From: a virus
Lineage: Duplodnaviria; Heunggongvirae; Uroviricota; Caudoviricetes
Direction: 5' to 3' (one strand)
IMG/VR virus record: IMGVR_UViG_2671180884_000031
DNA length: 23,679 bases
Part shown: positions 2,847 to 12,425 of the stretch, piece after piece
Numbering within the stretch: the first letter of the stretch is position 1
Layout of the letters: every line of letters starts with the position of its first letter
Made by a program: the position numbers and the translations under genes
Notes under the pieces: model-generated
Told to the model about the DNA's origin: nothing
Database searches by the model: none
What the model saw: the letters and a program-made list of their open reading frames with translations, nothing else

Positions 2847-5324
2847 TTAAGAATCAGCCTGACTCGGGATCAGTTTTTGCCAGATAACTGAAACGTATTT
2901 TGCCTGGTAACGGGCGTCATCAAGTGCATTATGGCGCTCACCTTCGAATGGAATAGCCGTTCTGGCATCGAAGTCTATGGCTTTCCCCAGCTCAACGATT
3001 GTGCGTACATCGCGATCGTTGTAGTAACGCCACGGGCAGGGGATCCCCTGCCGCTCGTATGAACGGCGCAAAATCGTGTTGTCGAAGTTGGCTCCATTTC
3101 CCCAGACCTGAACAAAAAATTCACCGGAGTTTTCGTCGATAAATTCCCGCAATTGTAACAGTGCATCATCTAACGGGATTTCATCGGTCATAATGGCAGA
3201 TTGCGCTTCGCGTGATTGCTTAAGCCACCATTTAATGGTGTCCCGATCAATGACTCCGCCAGCAGTTTCCAGATCGATAGTCTTACTAAATTCCGGTCCC
3301 ATATCTCCGGTTTGCGGATCGAAAAATATTGCACCTATTGAGATGATCGGGGCATCAGGATTTTTTCCCATGGTTTCAAGGTCGATCATTAGATGGTCAC
3401 ACGTCCTGCTGGTGGATGTGATTTCGTGATGACCGTTCACCTTAATTGAGCGATCTGCCGTCTCGCCAGTTTCATTATCGCTATCGTGATGCTGATTGCC
3501 GCCAGTGTTCTCCTTGTGTGGATGTTCAGCGCCTTCCATTTCCTCCGGATCATCTTCCTGAACTTCAACCTGATACTCTTCATCGAATGTTTCCTGGTAT
3601 GTTGCGTCGCCCATCACCGCGCCACAATCAGGGCAGTTGCCGCCGCCGGTCTGACCGCAGGCGGTGCAGACTTTTTCCACTTCCTGTTGCGCCACTGGTT
3701 CAGGCTGTTTCGTTTCTGGCTCGTTTTGTAACGCATTTGGGCTGTTTTGTTCCGCTTTTTGGTAGTTCCGTTCCGATTCATGCTGGTTCTGGTTCACAGA
3801 ATCGCGGGTCTGGATCCCCTTAACCCATTTCGGATCATTCGGGTCACTAATCCCTTCAACAAATTCACCACGTGATGCAGCAAGCAACTTATCGGCGTCA
3901 GGCTGGCTGATATTGGCTGCCTGCATAATTTTGTTTACTTCGTCAGCGGTAACTTTTATCGGCTCTGGTTGTTCTGAATCTTCAGCGGTATCTACATTTT
4001 GCGGTAAGCCCGTGTATGTGCCATTTTTTCGGGCAAAATATTCTTCTTTTGTGATTTCAGTGGCGCCAGCAGCCAGTGCCTTATCCAGACCAGAAAGTTT
4101 GTTTGCGCGACCGTATTTTTCTCCGTCCTTATCTGCGAAGAGGAAATAGAACGGCCCCTCACGCTCTACAGATGGTTCAGCTTCCGGCGCGGTTTCATTT
4201 TTTGGGATATCAGATACCTCGGTTTCCACTGCATCAGTTTGTGTTTCTGATGACTGGAGAACATCAACAGTGCCCGGGTCTGTTTCTTCATTCTCAAACA
4301 CGCCCTTTGTCGTCAGGTATTCGCAGATATATTTGTTCAGTGCTACGGGATCTTTGTGAATGTCGATCGGACGCTCACGGACAAGGCCAAAAATAGTTTG
4401 GCGGTCGTAGCGAAGGGCATCAGGCTGTTTGCGCATTGATGCCGAGATACGCTTCCAGTCTTCGCGGTCGTTGTCGATAACTTCTTTTTTTGCCCAGCGA
4501 TGGATGCTGCCGTCAATGTTTCCGGCATCCACATCACCAGGCCAGAGAGCGTAGGCCAGTTCGTCATCCAGTGTTTTCCATGTCTGCTTGTATTCGCGAT
4601 GAATGGCAGCAATGACCGGGCTGATTTTTCCTGTTGAATTTTCAGTGTACTGTTGATTGGCTTTGGCGCGGGCGAGATCAACAACAGACGTGTATTTTCC
4701 GGTTTCCTTGCGTTCACCTTCGCGACGTTTTTTCCAGATGCGCATCTCTGCCTGAATTTCGGGCCATTTAGCACCAGGAATACATTTATGCTTAACCCAC
4801 CCAATGGCGTGCAACTTAAGCTCCGGATACATGGCGTTAACTTCTGGCATTTTCATCAACGCTTCAACGATATGTCCGTCGAATGTTGCCATGTCTTCCT
4901 GCAACAATTCCTGTGCGCTAATAACCATATCAACGGTGATGTTTTCACATGTGTCGAACTTAACCATGACAGCGTTCTGTACTTCAGGGGCCAGCTTGTC
5001 AAAAGTGACGTTCATCGGATCGGATTCAGTCTCAACCGGGACAAAAGAAGCAGACTCCTCATCCCAGCGGTTTTCCTGCATATATTCAGCATCCCATGAA
5101 TCGAGGGCAGGGCGGGGTATGCCAGGTTTATCCTCGCAGACAATAAATTTATAAGCGCAGTCCTGAGCAGCCGGATAATGTTCCAGGAACTGCCAGTGAA
5201 ATTTTGCTCGAGCACGGCGTTCGTCGCCAGCTTCAATGGCTGTGGCTACAGCCACAGCCACAGCGCCTTCTTCCCTTGTTGCCAGTTCGTCAGGAATAGC
5301 GGCGCAAATAAAGACTTTACTCAT
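2847..5324 (-). CDS. Prophage exonuclease (RecE/exodeoxyribonuclease VIII-like) with C-terminal DEDDh 3'-5' exonuclease domain
   Basis: 825-aa ORF; the C-terminal ~200 aa carry MIDLETMG (Exo I) and HNALDDARYQAKY (Exo III, H-x4-D); an acidic Q/E-rich middle and a CTACGQTGGGNCPDCG zinc-ribbon-like motif precede it. Sits where K-12 has the ydfE fragment. Confidence 0.6.
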   Translation of the reverse strand: MSKVFICAAIPDELATREEGAVAVAVATAIEAGDERRARAKFHWQFLEHYPAAQDCAYKFIVCEDKPGIPRPALDSWDAEYMQENRWDEESASFVPVETESDPMNVTFDKLAPEVQNAVMVKFDTCENITVDMVISAQELLQEDMATFDGHIVEALMKMPEVNAMYPELKLHAIGWVKHKCIPGAKWPEIQAEMRIWKKRREGERKETGKYTSVVDLARAKANQQYTENSTGKISPVIAAIHREYKQTWKTLDDELAYALWPGDVDAGNIDGSIHRWAKKEVIDNDREDWKRISASMRKQPDALRYDRQTIFGLVRERPIDIHKDPVALNKYICEYLTTKGVFENEETDPGTVDVLQSSETQTDAVETEVSDIPKNETAPEAEPSVEREGPFYFLFADKDGEKYGRANKLSGLDKALAAGATEITKEEYFARKNGTYTGLPQNVDTAEDSEQPEPIKVTADEVNKIMQAANISQPDADKLLAASRGEFVEGISDPNDPKWVKGIQTRDSVNQNQHESERNYQKAEQNSPNALQNEPETKQPEPVAQQEVEKVCTACGQTGGGNCPDCGAVMGDATYQETFDEEYQVEVQEDDPEEMEGAEHPHKENTGGNQHHDSDNETGETADRSIKVNGHHEITSTSRTCDHLMIDLETMGKNPDAPIISIGAIFFDPQTGDMGPEFSKTIDLETAGGVIDRDTIKWWLKQSREAQSAIMTDEIPLDDALLQLREFIDENSGEFFVQVWGNGANFDNTILRRSYERQGIPCPWRYYNDRDVRTIVELGKAIDFDARTAIPFEGERHNALDDARYQAKYVSVIWQKLIPSQADS

Positions 5325-5609: not shown

Positions 5610-5794
5610 TGTGCACATCCTTTTGGCATCAGACGTAAACGAGCCAGCATTGAAACAATGCATATTTTATTTAATAGCTCCCGTTCTTGTTTTCTCTTGT
5701 TAATGGCATCTTCAGTAAATACAGGGTTACTGATAGTGACACCAATTTCAAAACAACCTTCAGACGTATTAACGTTTGGTAATAACGTTTTCAT
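5606..5794 (-). CDS. dicB: Cell-division inhibitor DicB (62 aa)
   Basis: MKTLLPNVNTSEGCFEIGVTISNPVFTEDAINKRKQERELLNKICIVSMLARLRLMPKGCAQ from ATG at 5794 with a GAGGA SD upstream; matches recalled DicB. Confidence 0.85.
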   Translation of the reverse strand: MKTLLPNVNTSEGCFEIGVTISNPVFTEDAINKRKQERELLNKICIVSMLARLRLMPKGCAQ

Positions 5795-5967
5795 TATCGC
5801 GTCCTCAACAATGAATTTTGTGATGCAGTGCCTGGTGCCTCCAGGTGACGTTAACCAGTTAACAATTAACGCCGGATACAGAGAATCCACCCATAACACT
5901 GTTTTTGGTTTTAACTGTTCCGCGTGCGCTTAGCCGCATTCACCGCATCACAAAATTCACTTTAAAA

Positions 5968-6021
5968 ACGGCGGTAGAGCAGTCACGGAGTAAAACTGAT
6001 ACTGCCAAACGTCACCAGAAA
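5968..6021 (-). ncRNA. dicF: DicF small regulatory RNA (ftsZ-targeting antisense sRNA)
   Basis: Minus strand reads TTTCTGGTGACGTTTGGCAGTATCAGTTTTACTCCGTGACTGCTCTACCGCCGTTTTT, near-identical to recalled K-12 DicF, ending in a GC stem plus T-run; lies ~170 bp upstream of dicB as in K-12. Confidence 0.8.
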
Positions 6022-7157: not shown

Positions 7158-7188
7158 AAAAGATAACTCATTGATGATGTTATCTTTT
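7158..7188 (-). terminator. Candidate intrinsic terminator after dicA
   Basis: Perfect 10-bp inverted repeat AAAAGATAAC / GTTATCTTTT with an 11-nt loop, overlapping the dicA stop codon and followed on the minus strand by an A/T-rich tract. Confidence 0.4.
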
Positions 7189-7587
7189 ATTTGTCCGCTG
7201 ACGGGCTTTTAGTAATTCTTCAAAGAGTTTATTGAAATTTTTTACTCGAGCTCGCATTTCGGCGAGCTGGGTATCCTGTTCTGATTCTGGCAGTGCATTA
7301 AACAGCTCAAGGAGCTCTAGTTCTTTGGGGGCTAAGGCAACCGGCTTCTCAACAGGTGGTGTTGGTTGCTTGTCTTCATCGCCAAATAGAATCCATGTTG
7401 GTGAGCATTGCAATACTTTGCTGAGGGCAAAAAGGTTCTTCCCTGTAGGTTCACTATCATCCCGTTCCCATTGTGATACAGACACATGGGAGATTTTCAG
7501 GGCTTTAGCAAGAGACCTTTGGGTGTGTTTGAGGTTTTTCCGACGATACCTAATGCGTTCGCCGATGGTTAAATTTTTTGTATCCAT
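7180..7587 (-). CDS. dicA: HTH-XRE repressor DicA (135 aa)
   Basis: MDTKNLTIGERIRYRRKNLKHTQRSLAKALKISHVSVSQWERDDSEPTGKNLFALSKVLQCSPTWILFGDE...; XRE-type helix-turn-helix; matches recalled DicA. Confidence 0.85.
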   Translation of the reverse strand: MDTKNLTIGERIRYRRKNLKHTQRSLAKALKISHVSVSQWERDDSEPTGKNLFALSKVLQCSPTWILFGDEDKQPTPPVEKPVALAPKELELLELFNALPESEQDTQLAEMRARVKNFNKLFEELLKARQRTNKR

Positions 7588-7603: not shown

Positions 7604-7638
7604 ATCGTATTGACTATGTTTTTGTTAACATCTATTTT

Positions 7639-7670: not shown

Positions 7671-7901
7671 ATGCTTAAAACTGACGCTCTTTTGTATTTC
7701 GGTTCAAAAACAAAACTTGCACAAGCAGCAGGTATTCGTTTGGCTTCGCTTTATAGCTGGAAAGGGGATTTAGTTCCCGAAGGTCGCGCGATGCGTCTAC
7801 AGGAGGCATCTGGCGGGGAGCTTCAGTATGATCCCAAAGTTTATGACGAATATCGTAAGACGAAGCGGGCGGGGCGGTTGAACAATGAAAATCACTCCTG
7901 A
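7671..7901 (+). CDS. dicC: Cro-like regulator DicC (76 aa)
   Basis: MLKTDALLYFGSKTKLAQAAGIRLASLYSWKGDLVPEGRAMRLQEASGGELQYDPKVYDEYRKTKRAGRL...; divergent from dicA. Confidence 0.8.
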   Translation: MLKTDALLYFGSKTKLAQAAGIRLASLYSWKGDLVPEGRAMRLQEASGGELQYDPKVYDEYRKTKRAGRLNNENHS

Positions 7902-8406
7902 ACAGGCTCGTGAGGCTCTGGATGCCTGGATATGTCGACCAGGAATGACACAGGAGCAGGCGACGATATTAATCACTGAAGCATTCTGGGCTTTGAAAGA
8001 GCGCTCGAACATCGATGTTCAGCGTGTCACATATGAAGGTGGCGCGGTTGATCAGCGAGCGCTTAGCGTTAATCGAGTGAAGATATTTGAACGCTGGAAG
8101 GCTATCGACACCAGGGATAAGCGTGAAAAGTTCACAGCGCTAGTGCCTGCAATTATGGAGGCTATCCGGATTAGTGATTTCAGGTTGTATCGTGAAATTA
8201 GTGACGGAAAGAGCATTACGTACATGATCGCTGGGTTAAATAAAGAATATGGCGATGTGGTGGAGTCCGGACTGCTTTTTGCAGATCCTGCCGTTGTAGA
8301 TCGTGAAACTGACGAACTTATAGAAAAAGCAATTGCTTTCAAGCTTGCGTATCGACAGCAATACCAACAAAAAGCTGGATGGAATTATGAGTCTTCTTTT
8401 TGCTGA
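7885..8406 (+). CDS. YdaT-like prophage protein (CII-like regulator / toxin YdaT family)
   Basis: 173-aa ORF overlapping the dicC 3' end by 17 bp; KREKFTALVPAIMEAIRISDFR resembles the Rac YdaT segment QREKIQKLIPAILAILPRELR. Confidence 0.5.
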   Translation: MKITPEQAREALDAWICRPGMTQEQATILITEAFWALKERSNIDVQRVTYEGGAVDQRALSVNRVKIFERWKAIDTRDKREKFTALVPAIMEAIRISDFRLYREISDGKSITYMIAGLNKEYGDVVESGLLFADPAVVDRETDELIEKAIAFKLAYRQQYQQKAGWNYESSFC

Positions 8407-9352
8407 ACGCCCACTGGTTATAAACACGCAGCTGGCAATGAAAATCGGCTTAAACGAAGCCATTGTTTTGCAACAACTGCACTACTGGTTGAGAGATACC
8501 AACTCCGGTATGGAATGTGATGGTGTTCGCTGGATTTATAACACAACGGAACAATGGCTGGAACAGTTCCCATTCTGGTCAGAGTCAACGTTAAAGCGCG
8601 CGTTTGCAAGTCTGAAAACGCTGGGGCTTTTGCGTTGTGAAAAGCTCAATAAATCAAAGCGCGATATGACCAATTTCTACACGATCAACTATGGGAGCGA
8701 GCTTTTAGATGGTGGCAAATTGAACGAATCCATCGGTTCAAAATGCGCCGCTCCATCAGGTCAAAATGACACGATGGAAGAGGTCAAAATGAAACGCTCC
8801 ATTGGTTCAAAACGACCCAATGTCATCGGGTCAAAATGGCCTGATGATCTTACAGAGAATACAACAGAGATTACTACAGAGAATAAAAACACTTTTCGTC
8901 CGGAAGCTTCGCAACCGGACCCGCAGACGACTGAACAGGATTTTTTAACCCGGAACCCCGACGCGGTTGTGTTTAGTGTGAAAAAACGCCAGTGGGGTAG
9001 CAGGGAGGATTTGGCGTGTGCGCAGTGGATTTGGGGGCGGATCGTGAACCTTTACGAACAGGCTGCCAGCGACGATGGAGAGATCATGCGACCAAAAGAG
9101 CCTAACTGGACAGCCTGGGCCAATGACGTGCGCACAATGCGGATGCTGGATGGCAGAAGCCATAGACAAATTTGCGAAATGTTTGGTCGGGTACAGCGGG
9201 ATCCATTCTGGGTAAAAAACATCATGAGCCCGTCAAAACTCCGCGAAAAATGGGACGAACTGGTCATCCGCCTGGGACGTTCACCTGAACAGCGTTGTGT
9301 GAATCATATTTCTGAACCGGATACAGAAATTCCGCCTGGTTTCAGAGGATAA
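8387..9352 (+). CDS. Phage replication initiation protein (lambda O-like replisome organiser) with internal iteron array
   Basis: ORF 8333..9352 with the likely start at ATG 8387; the N-terminal wHTH-like segment, an SIGSK-repeat middle encoded by DNA iterons, and the position after the cro/cII-like genes all fit an O-like initiator. Confidence 0.55.
   Translation: MSLLFAERPLVINTQLAMKIGLNEAIVLQQLHYWLRDTNSGMECDGVRWIYNTTEQWLEQFPFWSESTLKRAFASLKTLGLLRCEKLNKSKRDMTNFYTINYGSELLDGGKLNESIGSKCAAPSGQNDTMEEVKMKRSIGSKRPNVIGSKWPDDLTENTTEITTENKNTFRPEASQPDPQTTEQDFLTRNPDAVVFSVKKRQWGSREDLACAQWIWGRIVNLYEQAASDDGEIMRPKEPNWTAWANDVRTMRMLDGRSHRQICEMFGRVQRDPFWVKNIMSPSKLREKWDELVIRLGRSPEQRCVNHISEPDTEIPPGFRG
8729..8838. 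repeat. Iteron array, candidate prophage replication origin inside the O-like gene
   Basis: Five direct repeats of ~CATCGGTTCAAAATG at ~23-bp spacing (starting near 8729, 8752, 8777, 8798, 8822), followed by an A-rich ACAGAGA-repeat tract. Confidence 0.6.
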
Positions 9353-9392: not shown

Positions 9393-9794
9393 GTGGCAAA
9401 AGTTTTTACACAAGAAGAGCGGGAAAAAATTAAAGGGCAGGTGGTGGAACTCGTGCGCCAGAGTGGTCGTGAGACGTTACGGCAACTGGAAGCTAAAACA
9501 GGTGCGACTAGATATCTGATGAGCGTTCTTGCCAGAGAGCTGGTAGCCAGTGGCGATGTATACAACTCCGGCTACGTGTTATTCCCGTCTGAACAGGCGC
9601 GTAAGGACTGGCAAAACGCCCGCAAAAAACTATCGAGGGCAAAGGTGAAGAAAACAGCTGTGGTTGATCCGGACCTTATCTGGTCGTTACCTGATGGAGA
9701 AATACGTCGCTACGACAGTCGCCTAAACATAATCTGTCGCGAGTGCCGGATGAGTGAAGTTATGCAGCGCATACTGGCATTTTATCAGGGATAA
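9393..9794 (+). CDS. Hypothetical protein (GTG start), possibly replication-associated
   Basis: 133-aa ORF with an AGGGGG SD 5-6 nt upstream of GTG 9393; immediately follows the O-like gene. Confidence 0.45.
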   Translation: MAKVFTQEEREKIKGQVVELVRQSGRETLRQLEAKTGATRYLMSVLARELVASGDVYNSGYVLFPSEQARKDWQNARKKLSRAKVKKTAVVDPDLIWSLPDGEIRRYDSRLNIICRECRMSEVMQRILAFYQG

Positions 9795-10096: not shown

Positions 10097-10843
10097 TTAT
10101 TCAGCTAAATAACCGCCATCGATTGGATAAACGCCTCCGGTACAGAATGTAGAACTGTCTGACAGCAAGAACAATATGAAGTCTGCTATTTCCTGCATTT
10201 TTGCCATCCTTTTCATAGGGTGGCTATTTGCGAAACTACTTACAATATTTTCAGGGAACTCACTCATTCTTTGGGTTTGGACATAGCCCGGAGCGACTGC
10301 ATTGATTCGAATGCCTTGACATGCAAACTCTAGCGCTGCGGTTTGGGTTAAACCGATTATACCATGTTTAGCCACGGTGTAAGGTGCTAATCCAGGAATG
10401 CCAACCAGACCATTTACTGCAGATAAATTAACTATAGATCCACCAAACTTCATCATCTGGGGTATTTCATATTTTAGGCAGTGAAAAACGCCGCTCAATG
10501 AGGTAGCAATAACCTTATCCCAGTTTTCAACTGTCTGCTCTGTTATATTTTTACCATGTTCACCTGTTAAGCCTGCATTATTTACAGCATAATCAAGTCT
10601 GCCGAAATGTTTGATAACCTCATCTATCATTTGCCGTACTTGTTCGGGCTGTGACACATCACATCCGATCCCCATGGCTTGTTGTCCCTGTGAAGATAAT
10701 TGTTCCGCTTTTTGTTTAGCCTGTTCTGACGAGCGGGATACAATAACAACTTTTGCACCATGCTTATGTAATTGCTCTGCGACGGCCTCACCTATACCTG
10801 TAGTGCTTCCTGTTATAACGGCAATTTTATTCTGGAAATTCAT
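10097..10843 (-). CDS. SDR-family (short-chain dehydrogenase/reductase) oxidoreductase
   Basis: TGSTTGIG cofactor-binding motif, NNAG, catalytic YTVAKHG (YxxxK); start at ATG 10843 with a GGGGGTGG SD. Confidence 0.8.
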   Translation of the reverse strand: MNFQNKIAVITGSTTGIGEAVAEQLHKHGAKVVIVSRSSEQAKQKAEQLSSQGQQAMGIGCDVSQPEQVRQMIDEVIKHFGRLDYAVNNAGLTGEHGKNITEQTVENWDKVIATSLSGVFHCLKYEIPQMMKFGGSIVNLSAVNGLVGIPGLAPYTVAKHGIIGLTQTAALEFACQGIRINAVAPGYVQTQRMSEFPENIVSSFANSHPMKRMAKMQEIADFILFLLSDSSTFCTGGVYPIDGGYLAE

Positions 10844-10914
10844 AACCACCCCCTATGAAGTAGAATTGAGTCTTTCATCTGGGATAGTATACAAACCATC
10901 TGTGACAGTTTTTG

Positions 10915-11604
10915 TCAGTACTCTTTCCCCTCGCAGATCCCTTCTTTTATTCTCCATTTTTTCAATAAAATTGTCCTGCTTTCACTATAGTTGGAGTCAA
11001 GTTGCACAATATCTTCAATTTTGTCAGTTCTAAAATGACGAAAATCATTTCTCATCTCGCACCATGCAACCAAAAGCCAGCACGATTCCATGTATACCAA
11101 TCCGATGGGCCATATGACTCGTGAAGTGTAAGAATCTTTTTTATCACAATAATTTATTTTGATTTTCTTTCTTTTTTTTATAGCATTGCGAATGTCTTCA
11201 AAAAAAATCTCATTGTTTTCTGATGGACCGATCAGATAGGATTGACTCTCAATAAGATTTTTCAATTCACTGGGAATGACGGCGTGTATTTTCGCAAGCG
11301 CATTCTTTGCGGTAATTTTGAAATTATAATCTGTATTGTGCGATACCCAATTTAACCCAAGTGTAATAGCATTAATTTCTTCATGAGAAAGATTTAAGGG
11401 GGGCAAATGAAAGTCAGATTTAACAATATAACCAATTCCAGCACCACCTTCAATGCATACTCCTTGATGCTGCAGCGTTTTTATATCTCTGTAAAGGGAG
11501 CGTACACTTATTCCCAATCTTTCTGAGAGGATGGATGCTGTGATCGGATATCTTTGTGCCCTTAATATTTGTAGTAACTCGAGAAGTCTTTCTGTTCTAG
11601 TCAT
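10915..11604 (-). CDS. YafY-family transcriptional regulator (N-terminal HTH plus WYL-type ligand-binding domain)
   Basis: From the internal Met: MTRTERLLELLQILRAQRYPITASILSERLGISVRSLYRDIKTL..., a DeoR/YafY-type HTH followed by a WYL-like region; directly upstream of and co-oriented with the SDR gene. Confidence 0.6.
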   Translation of the reverse strand: MTRTERLLELLQILRAQRYPITASILSERLGISVRSLYRDIKTLQHQGVCIEGGAGIGYIVKSDFHLPPLNLSHEEINAITLGLNWVSHNTDYNFKITAKNALAKIHAVIPSELKNLIESQSYLIGPSENNEIFFEDIRNAIKKRKKIKINYCDKKDSYTSRVIWPIGLVYMESCWLLVAWCEMRNDFRHFRTDKIEDIVQLDSNYSESRTILLKKWRIKEGICEGKEY

Positions 11605-11822
11605 GTTGATAAATCCATTTTGAGGCGATTTCTTAAAGCATCTGTTAGATAAACATATTAGTACAAAGCAAGTGTACATGGCTAAGCTGAACTGCTACCG
11701 ATGATTAATACAGCGCTATGTTCGTAATGCGTACATAAGCGGTGATCATGAGTGTAAACATCCGCTTTTCGCTTATAAGGGACAACCATACTCAAATTTC
11801 CCACATTGCAGGAGATTTGAGT

Positions 11823-12425
11823 ATGAATACGTCACCGTGGAACAAAGACCGTATCATCGGCCAAAAAAGACCACTTCAGATATCTCATATCTGGGGGATC
11901 CGAATCCGGCTTGAACTGGAAGGTAAAACGCGCGATTTAGCTCTGTTCAATATGGCCCTGGACAGTAAGCTTCGAGGCTGTGATCTGGTCAAACTCAAAG
12001 TATCGGATGTGGCATATGGTAGTTCGGTTTCAAGCAGAGCAACGGTGTTGCAACAGAAAACCGGTAGCCCTGTGCAATTCGAGATAACCAAAGGGACAAG
12101 AGAAGCTGTTGCTGCATTGATAAAGCTTGGCAATTTGCACAGTAAAGACTTCTTGTTTCGGTCTCGGGTCGGAACTAACCAGCACATTTCAACCCGGCAA
12201 TACAACCGAATCTTTCATGGGTGGATAGAAAAACTTGGTCTCGAAGGTTCACTTTACAGCACACATTCAATGAGAAGAACAAAACCTTACCTGATCTACA
12301 AGAAAACCAAGAATCTCCGGGTGATCCAACTTCTGTTGGGTCATAAGAAACTGGAAAGCACAGTCCGTTATCTGGGCATTGAAGTCGATGATGCGTTAGA
12401 GATCTCTGAATCGATTGAAGTCTAA
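11823..12425 (+). CDS. Short tyrosine site-specific recombinase (~200 aa, phage-integrase family catalytic domain)
   Basis: AGGAG SD before ATG 11823; C-terminal HSMRRT...LLGHKKLESTVRYL carries the R/H-x-x-R ... Y catalytic signature. Confidence 0.65.
   Translation: MNTSPWNKDRIIGQKRPLQISHIWGIRIRLELEGKTRDLALFNMALDSKLRGCDLVKLKVSDVAYGSSVSSRATVLQQKTGSPVQFEITKGTREAVAALIKLGNLHSKDFLFRSRVGTNQHISTRQYNRIFHGWIEKLGLEGSLYSTHSMRRTKPYLIYKKTKNLRVIQLLLGHKKLESTVRYLGIEVDDALEISESIEV

Follow-up and report, generated by a model that had tools for sequence, protein, structure and literature searches.

Results

Repeat array in an O-like initiator gene

We analyzed a stretch of DNA of 23,679 nucleotides (hereafter the window) from a virus of the Caudoviricetes (IMG/VR record IMGVR_UViG_2671180884_000031), in which a first-pass annotation had placed an iteron-type replication origin inside the gene for a lambda O-like replication initiator. 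The initiator gene (8387..9352, plus strand) has 321 codons from an ATG at 8387, which is the start annotated for identical or near-identical genes in the phages PhiR42_1, mEp460 and HannyBb; the mechanically called open reading frame (ORF) starts at a TTG at 8333. Coordinates are positions in the window, and residue numbers are counted from ATG 8387 unless stated otherwise. PHROG 391 ("replication initiation O-like") aligns along the whole length of the protein (E 7.6e-93), and PHROG 277 likewise matches it; Pfam and NCBIfam scans gave neither domain of the protein a family, and only PHROGs names it. Of 5426 complete E. coli genomes, 1767 carry the gene, mostly under the label "hypothetical protein".

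Inside this gene a repeat search found a unit of ~17 bp with the core GGTYCAAAAYG in five copies at 8729-8838, starting 23, 23, 23 and 24 bp from one another, and Tandem Repeats Finder reported the same array with a period of 23 and a score of 71. The five direct repeats at ~23-bp spacing that had been noticed within the coding sequence are thus real and lie where they were placed. All are on the plus strand: iteron 1 (8729..8745; TCCATCGGTTCAAAATG) has its CA...TG core at 8739-8745 and is read as SIGSK, iteron 2 (8752..8768; TCCATCAGGTCAAAATG(AC)) has the best dyad, GTCA-AAA-TGAC, and is read as PSGQN, iteron 3 (8775..8791; TGGAAGAGGTCAAAATG) is read as EEVKM, iteron 4 (8798..8814; TCCATTGGTTCAAAACG) again as SIGSK, and iteron 5 (8822..8838; GTCATCGGGTCAAAATG), which lies 24 bp past iteron 4, as VIGSK. 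A period of 23 bp is not a whole number of codons, and iterons 1-5 are accordingly read in differing frames (phases 0, 2, 1, 0 and 0), which argues that the repeat is selected as DNA. The repeats had been said to encode a repeated SIGSK peptide; three copies do encode (S/V)IGSK, but the two in other frames encode PSGQN and EEVKM. Upstream of iteron 1 and in the 23-bp register of the array lies a degenerate iteron 0 (8706..8722, plus strand; TAGATGGTGGCAAATTG), a position occupied by a good copy, GAGGTCAAAGTGA, in the orthologues of Citrobacter, Klebsiella and mEp460_4F5.

When the 23.7-kb window was scanned with a 15-nt consensus allowing up to three mismatches, five sites were found against 2.65 expected; phased copies of the array, at 8731-8838, account for four of these sites, and the scan revealed no second iteron cluster elsewhere in the window. 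Rfam, promoter and terminator scans gave no match at the array on either strand, and the closest matches to DnaA boxes, at 8977 and 9404, are both outside it. A minus-strand ORF of 43 aa (8761-8892) found no support.

Several further features of the array were seen. A 46-bp super-period overlies the 23-bp period both in the window (8729-8845) and in homologous arrays (L092 2843-2957, L137 2820-2890), and the spacers of the array alternate between CCATC and its complement GATGG. The spacer motif ATCGA is conserved across the family (of 380 units, 96% have A at -7), and the palindromic core of the iteron described below does not account for it. Exactly where the last iteron gives way to the 12-mers, at 8846-8849, is a GATC (Dam) site, which most of the enterobacterial orthologues in the alignment have kept, as have the homologues from Morganella and Pseudomonas; through this site the origin may be coupled to Dam/SeqA. 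Some E. coli copies (P0016-P0021, 290 aa) lack exactly 31 codons, that is, 93 bp or 23+23+23+24, corresponding to 8729-8821 of the window. In these copies iteron 1 has recombined with iteron 5, so that four of the five iterons are gone and one good iteron is left. This in-frame origin deletion resembles the r-type ori mutations of lambda, and its carriers are probably dead prophages.

Tandem 12-mers behind the iterons

An A-rich tract had been reported to follow the repeats. The tract is indeed AT-rich and purine-rich, but it is in fact an ordered triplet of tandem 12-mers (8852..8887, plus strand; ACAGAGAWTACW) with a purine-rich top strand, consisting in order of ACAGAGAATACA, ACAGAGATTACT and ACAGAGAATAAA (Tandem Repeats Finder: period 12, score 54). 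The 40-mer from 8853 is 68% A+T with 70% purine on its top strand, and the 40-mers that begin at 8846-8858 have the lowest duplex stability in the ORF (-44.3 kcal/mol vs a window mean of -52.1). From these properties we propose that the 12-mers form the DNA-unwinding element.

The motif ACAGAGAnTACw follows the iterons in 2-5 tandem copies in 53 of the 80 homologous loci described below, compared with 4 of 1045 control windows. Where the repeats were defined by their peptide, all 74 glutamate codons within the 12-mers are GAG, against 46% elsewhere in those ORFs, and 145 of the 146 threonine codons are ACA or ACT, against 44% elsewhere. Such an absolute codon choice indicates that the 12-mers are constrained as DNA too, and a purely protein-level account of them is insufficient. 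The right arm of ori-lambda (L006 1508-1515) contains CAGAGAAT, identical to the 12-mer core at 8853-8860. This shared core, like the similar iteron centers of the two systems, could reflect chance or a common requirement. A literature search for GGTCAAAATG returned unrelated primers only.

Domains of the initiator

The full-length structure model was poor (pLDDT 52.7) and was used for domain limits and disorder only, while the N-domain was remodeled with a deeper alignment and reached a pLDDT of 85. An extended winged-helix DNA-binding domain is predicted at the N-terminus (8426..8689, plus strand; aa 14-101), with the predicted recognition helix at aa 66-78 and, at the N-terminus of this helix, Ser67 (codon 8585-8587, plus strand), the central Ser of WSE-S-TLKR. 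It is followed by a predicted disordered linker (8711..8908, plus strand; aa 109-174; pLDDT <50 in the full-length model) and by a C-terminal helical domain (8933..9274, plus strand; aa 183-296) that is a homologue of the C-terminal (P-binding) domain of lambda O: tblastn gave 36.8% identity (E 2e-17) over aa 170-294, or 188-312 of the 339-aa ORF translation. The linker-encoding DNA holds iterons 1-5 (aa 115-151) and the 12-mers (aa 156-167). As the low-confidence segment of the model is the very part encoded by the iterons and 12-mers, the origin would sit in linker-coding DNA.

The N-domain is of a different type from that of lambda O. No Pfam family, Phage_rep_O (PF04492) included, matched the protein or its N-domain even at E<=10, while lambda O scanned alongside matched PF04492 with E 5.7e-36. 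In Pfam scans of the window protein and 35 diverse homologues, RepA_N (PF06970) was not among the families listed (the best 25 of 42), and the listed matches were weak, generic winged-helix ones. A profile of the N-domain run against the PDB sequences did not reach the RepA structures and gave insignificant PadR-type matches only. In comparisons of the model, the best fold match of the N-domain was RepA_N, with scores barely above those of generic winged-helix regulators. Together with the C-terminal tail described below, the initiator looks like a chimera of a possibly RepA_N-like N-domain, a lambda-O-like C-domain and a DnaT-like tail.

In some genomes (P0001, P0003 and P0004, 448 aa) a YdaT/cII-like protein is fused to the O-like initiator. 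The YdaT/cII-like and initiator genes overlap at 8387-8406 in the window, and the 448-aa fusion is probably a frameshift or an annotation artifact.

Conservation of the array across phyla

The 80 near-identical E. coli copies found in a scan of viral contigs were too alike to show covariation, and a scan with the N-domain alignment, using one genome per species, took its place. This gave 80 loci with 45-75% N-domain identity from Enterobacterales, Pseudomonas, Acinetobacter, Psychrobacter, Comamonas, a Campylobacterota metagenome-assembled genome (MAG), Bacillus/Neobacillus, Staphylococcus, lactobacilli, Clostridia, Actinobacteria and others. In most loci a period of 22-24 bp, or its double, was among the top three autocorrelations in the 200 bp after the N-domain. 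At least three CANNNTG sites spaced 22-24 or 45-47 bp were present in 47 of 78 loci, compared with 2 of 1332 control windows of the same loci; nearly all of these phased sites fall inside the ORF, and in 61 of the 78 at least two periodic CANNNTG sites lie within the ORF in mixed phases.

The unit that is conserved is a palindrome of 13-15 bp with an invariant CA...TG, an A/T center and lineage-specific arms: GGT-CAAAATG-ACC in E. coli, Staphylococcus and Fructilactobacillus, GGG-CAAATTG-CCC in Pseudomonas and Pantoea, GTG-CAAWTTG-CAC in Comamonas and Acinetobacter, GGA-CAATTTG-TCC in Mixta and Pantoea, GAT-CAAAATG-ATC in Limosilactobacillus, and ACC-CAAAATG-GGT in Moraxella and Levilactobacillus. 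Arm symmetry averages 2.37 of 4 positions in the iterons against 1.04 of 4 in control CANNNTG sites, and 380 distinct units gave the 23-bp consensus ATCGAwnrGGnCAAwwTGnnCCn, with the core rGGn-CA-Aww-TG-nCC. The DNA unit persists across phyla at ~50% protein identity. Among enterobacterial orthologues, third-codon positions are conserved at 0.49 in the N-domain and at 0.58 just past the 12-mers; in the iteron cores the value rises to 0.86, and within the 12-mers to 0.98.

The N-domain, iterons and 12-mers move as a unit while the C-domain is exchanged. Klebsiella phages keep the N-domain, iterons and 12-mers and have the C-domain swapped for Phg_2220_C, and SfII has the same C-domain with another N-domain (HTH_36) and other iterons of 15-bp period; the module junctions fall directly after the 12-mers. 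In the isolated phages PhiR42_1, mEp460_ev081 and HannyBb the gene is present at 97-98% identity with iterons 2-3 exact, and PhiR42_1 has the full five-copy array with the same spacing. The first-pass annotation had named two findings that would speak against it, repeats missing from the orthologues of replication-proficient relatives and a protein that is no initiator; the repeats are present in these three phages, and the protein is an initiator homologue by its PHROG 391 match and its lambda O C-domain.

Three MAGs assigned to unrelated phyla (L089 "Bacillota bacterium", L090 "Veillonella parvula" and L135 "Collinsella") carry N-domains 98-100% identical to that of the E. coli prophage protein, for which binning contamination is the likeliest explanation.

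Covariation of residue 67 and the iteron arm

We compared each alignment column with the base flanking CA...TG. Residue 67 was the best-predicting column, with mutual information of 1.57 of 1.70 bits. Pairings were then counted over 112 distinct protein/array combinations, which include two added clade-specific scans. An Asp at this position goes with G in 43 of 43 cases and a Ser with T in 28 of 28; Lys goes with A in 21 of 24, Arg with A in 6 of 8, and Asn or His with C in 4 of 4. The relation also holds between close relatives: among N-domains of the Pantoea type, with 96% identity outside residues 66-67, Asp/G gives way to Lys/A, and near-identical proteins of the Staphylococcus type switch from Ser/T to Arg/A. 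Because these co-switches occur within near-identical proteins, they tie the repeats to the initiator's own N-domain and not to the product of a neighboring gene. From the sequence covariation we infer that the N-domain reads the iterons via residue 67.

DnaT-like tail of the initiator

The protein ends in a tail (9287..9349, plus strand; EQRCVNHISEPDTEIPPGFRG) that is almost the same as the C-terminal 21 residues of DnaT from E. coli. In a phmmer search of the PDB with the single protein, the tail aligned with DnaT 159-179, which was the sole match. The full NCBIfam DnaT model (NF002770) scored 16.8 bits, far below its cut-off of 201, and its alignment was confined to the 21 terminal residues. 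Some pipelines call the protein "Primosomal protein I" because of this tail; we reject the identity as DnaT and retain a DnaT-like tail only.

The ending ...SEPDxxIPPGFRG closes at least four otherwise unrelated scaffolds of enterobacterial prophage initiators. Those with an IPxGFRG end are the window protein, the Klebsiella Phg_2220_C form (L004 3507-4421), the SfII HTH_36 form (gp41; L005 3339-4280) and YdaU of the Rac prophage (L328 2120-2977), and the same end is found on many homologues from Citrobacter, Enterobacter and Pantoea. Firmicute homologues (L148, L130, L133, L138-L141, L149) have acidic-aromatic ends such as KDDLPF, EEDFRFDDET, EPDFDF and DKELPW. Their resemblance to the C-terminal tip of SSB suggests that these tails may be host-matched recruitment peptides.

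The gene directly downstream of the initiator (9393..9794, plus strand) is a DUF977/Ren-like gene (Pfam DUF977, E 1.3e-25; PHROG 142, "Ren-like exclusion protein"), so the gene after the initiator in the window is not a P-type helicase loader. Nor is a helicase or loader gene annotated in the stretches covered of PhiR42_1, mEp460, HannyBb, mEp460_4F5 and SfII. The DnaT-like tail and the missing loader together suggest, speculatively, that the tail recruits host replication proteins. A 2026 cryo-EM paper on the preprimosome does not state the contacts of the DnaT C-terminal tail, and literature searches for "initiator-solo" and "PPGFRG" gave nothing relevant.

Genomic setting

The neighborhood is a lambdoid early region. 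A cI-like repressor (7180-7587, minus strand) is followed by a putative pR-like promoter (7610..7638, plus strand), found by a consensus scan only (TTGACT-17-TATTTT, 9 of 12 matches), ahead of a Cro-like gene (7671-7901, plus strand; Pfam P22_Cro, E 1.7e-11), and the cII-like/YdaT gene (7885-8406) is the upstream neighbor of the initiator gene. Transcription from the pR-like promoter through the cro, cII-like and O-like operon would cross the origin. Further to the left are an integrase (1208-2503), a RecE-like exonuclease (2847-5324), a sub-threshold STnc100-like match (5762-5971) and the DicF sRNA (5969-6020; 62 bits, above the gathering score), all on the minus strand. DicF, the STnc100-like match and ydfB/C/D-like genes together identify the element as a Qin-like prophage. 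Directly after the replication module lies non-phage cargo (10097-12425) consisting of a short-chain dehydrogenase (10097-10849, minus strand), a WYL/HTH regulator (10915-11679, minus strand) and a second integrase-family ORF (11742-12425, plus strand); PhiR42_1 has a methyltransferase and other genes at the cargo position.

Comparison with known replication modules

The lambda origin lies in the middle of gene O and has 19-bp inverted-repeat iterons, to which O binds as a dimer, and an AT-rich tract (PMC7466680). We found the four lambda iterons (ATCCCTCAAAACGAGGGA type) to start 20, 24 and 23 bp apart in differing frames of O, followed by a purine-rich AT tract. Spacing, frames and AT tract are thus alike in lambda and the window. 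The remark that a 23-bp phasing is not a whole number of helical turns is correct, but this phasing is ordinary and does not set the window apart. As in lambda, the array occupies the central part of the initiator gene, with the N-terminal DNA-binding domain encoded before it and the C-terminal recruitment domain after it. The gene has the same operon position after cro and cII, a purine-rich and AT-rich tract follows on the 3' side of the array, and the C-domains are homologous (37% identity). Lambda and the Stx-phage variants, which have six iterons, share with it 4-6 dyad-symmetric iterons of ~18 bp at ~23-bp spacing in mixed frames, and the iteron centers are TCAAAACG in lambda and TCAAAATG in the window. 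The likeness to lambda O holds for the C-domain and the layout but not for the N-domain, which may have a RepA_N-like fold and has no PF04492 match, nor for the genes that follow, as the window has no P-type loader or helicase gene. In addition, the window protein carries a DnaT-like tail that is absent from lambda O, and its AT-rich tract is made of ordered, conserved 12-mers whereas that of lambda is a loose A-rich run.

The second comparison is with the RepA_N theta replicons of Gram-positive plasmids (pSK41, pTZ2162) and the RepA of Vibrio PLE. The rep gene of pSK41 has its Rep boxes at the center, where the origin codes for a linker domain that Rep can do without (PMC5703833), and RepA_N iterons have been described as inverted repeats that converge toward a run of poly-A (PMC7145576). 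The plan is similar: Rep of pSK41 has ~320 aa, its N-domain of ~110-120 aa binds the central Rep boxes, its middle is a linker and its C-domain varies with the host (PMC5703833), and the semi-palindromic iterons of the window family are likewise inverted repeats converging on an A-tract. The window differs in that its N-domain gave no sequence match to PF06970 among the families listed, it is a prophage or phage element and not a plasmid, its C-domain is lambda-O-like whereas that of pSK41 binds DnaG, and no antisense-RNA copy control was seen in the window.

Passages of a 2025 survey (PMC12315714) give 34 of 314 enterobacterial lambdoid phages as having an O homologue only, and describe these "O-only" phages as never studied experimentally and their replication as "not yet understood"; those passages make no mention of an origin, iterons or a DnaT-like tail. 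The O-only modules (LLS, mEp460_4F5 and the SfII/SfIV group) resemble the window in having a lone O-homologue gene and no helicase or loader. The mEp460_4F5 module shares the N-domain and the 12-mers with the window and has six iterons, while SfII shares the C-domain and tail but has the HTH_36 N-domain and iterons of 15-bp period.

The Rac prophage, which had also been suggested for comparison, is similar in part only. Its operon order (ydaS/cro-like, ydaT/cII-like, then the initiator) is the same, and YdaU ends in the same DnaT-like tail, ...VSLPDSAIPPGFRG. However, YdaU is an unrelated DUF1376 protein that aligns over its last ~27 residues only and has the last ~17 in common with the window protein, it is followed by the DnaC-like ATPase YdaV, and its repeats are different. 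These are internal direct repeats of ydaU, AAGCAGATGTTCAA (L328 2472-2563), spaced 33, 33 and 12 bp and unrelated in sequence to the window array; they are a candidate for the Rac origin.

Discussion

Our comparative analysis points to 8706-8887 as the origin from which a Qin-like lambdoid prophage would replicate vegetatively, placed where the prophage's initiator gene codes for the linker; judged from sequence, we put the probability of this reading at about 85%. All the comparative tests that we ran agree with an iteron-type origin on the lambda plan, as the first-pass annotation had proposed. An origin within the linker-coding part of an initiator gene is of a known kind, represented by lambda O/ori-lambda and by RepA_N plasmids. 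What is distinctive here is the chimeric initiator, the 12-mers that recur across phyla, the one-residue/one-base-pair specificity relation and the lack of a phage-encoded helicase loader.

The origin might work as follows. A dimer of the winged-helix N-domain would bind each 13-15-bp palindromic core of the GGT-CA-AAA-TG-ACC type, and residue 67, where the recognition helix begins, would read the base pair just outside the invariant CA...TG. On the 5-6 sites at 23 bp (~2.2 helical turns) a nucleoprotein complex would then form in which the DNA is bent or wrapped, much as in the O-some of lambda. In supercoiled DNA, and with the help of rightward transcription from the pR-like promoter, the resulting stress would melt the adjacent purine-rich 12-mer triplet. 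The lambda-O-like C-domain and the DnaT-like tail would finally bring in the helicase-loading machinery of the host, since the phage encodes no loader of its own. Binding, wrapping, melting and the host partner of the tail are each deduced and not observed steps.

An unlikely explanation, and still the best of the alternatives, is that the iterons are initiator sites serving regulation only, by roadblock autorepression, by titration or handcuffing for copy control, or by exclusion of related phages, while unwinding and helicase loading occur elsewhere in the genome. The covariation and dyad symmetry indeed prove a partnership of protein and DNA and not initiation, the sites lie in a transcribed operon downstream of the pR-like promoter, and related phages are known to be inhibited by cloned fragments of the lambda ori (PMC3349717, PMC4488673). 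However, the iterons always adjoin conserved, DNA-constrained 12-mers of low stability, as in the lambda and pSK41 origins, and the consensus scan found no other iteron cluster in the window. Regulation and initiation can moreover coexist at the same sites.

It is far less probable that the repeats are sites of another protein, such as the DUF977/Ren-like winged-helix protein, the cII-like YdaT product or a host factor, or that they form a packaging or recombination site. The DUF977 (9393-9794) and cII-like (7885-8406) genes encode adjacent putative DNA binders, and the conserved spacer ATCGA / CCATC, for which the palindromic core does not account, could be the site of a second protein. But the neighbors vary while the iterons stay, the next gene being a Dam methylase in the phage of Klebsiella, with other genes following the initiator in mEp460_4F5 and SfII; the arm base tracks initiator residue 67 even where it switches within near-identical proteins; and the array is found across phyla wherever the initiator N-domain occurs. 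That the repeats have no DNA function and are a slippage-generated, low-complexity SIGSK linker is the least credible explanation, since, although three of the five copies encode (S/V)IGSK and the region is a predicted disordered linker, it is already contradicted by the 23-bp period with two copies in other frames. Third positions conserved at 0.86 in the cores vs 0.49 in the folded N-domain, dyad symmetry and covariation with a DNA-binding residue, and the same DNA unit at ~50% protein identity across phyla also speak against it.

Some observations weigh against an origin at 8706-8887. The iterons of the window are symmetric at only 3-4 of 6 arm positions, and the 12-mer tract, although the stability minimum of the gene, is only at the 96th percentile of the whole window. 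The 12-mers are always in one frame and encode TExT, so that some peptide-level role is conceivable; the single exception is L131, in which they are in another frame because the ORF is truncated. The prophage copy in the window may itself be defective, given its cargo genes and the natural 93-bp iteron deletions elsewhere in E. coli. Finally, the compared loci share descent, and the counts are therefore not of independent events. The strongest answer to this last objection is the co-switching of residue 67 and the arm base within clusters, which is hard to attribute to shared ancestry alone.

Beyond the origin itself we can offer, tentatively and at well below even odds, a joint reading of the three unusual features, in which the origin belongs to a loader-less system of initiation based on mimicry of the host. 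The tail copied from DnaT would be a portable docking motif for the DnaT/PriA restart primosome or for DnaB-DnaC of the host, replacing phage P, and the SSB-like acidic tails of the Firmicute proteins would be its equivalent. The ACAGAGAnTAC 12-mers found across phyla would be a specific single-strand-binding or unwinding element like the 13-mers of oriC or the DnaA-trios and not simply AT-rich DNA, and residue 67 would be a programmable switch of one residue and one base pair that sets the incompatibility of replicons.

The gene is present in about a third of complete E. coli genomes, and its recognition as an initiator with an internal origin improves the annotation of prophages, giving a defined candidate origin of 180 bp for a common class of lambdoid phages. 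It also supplies ideas that can be tested, namely the reprogramming of iteron specificity through residue 67, the 12-mers as an unwinding element and a DnaT-mimicking tail for helicase loading where the phage has no loader. One chimeric protein would thereby link lambda O and the initiators of RepA_N plasmids.

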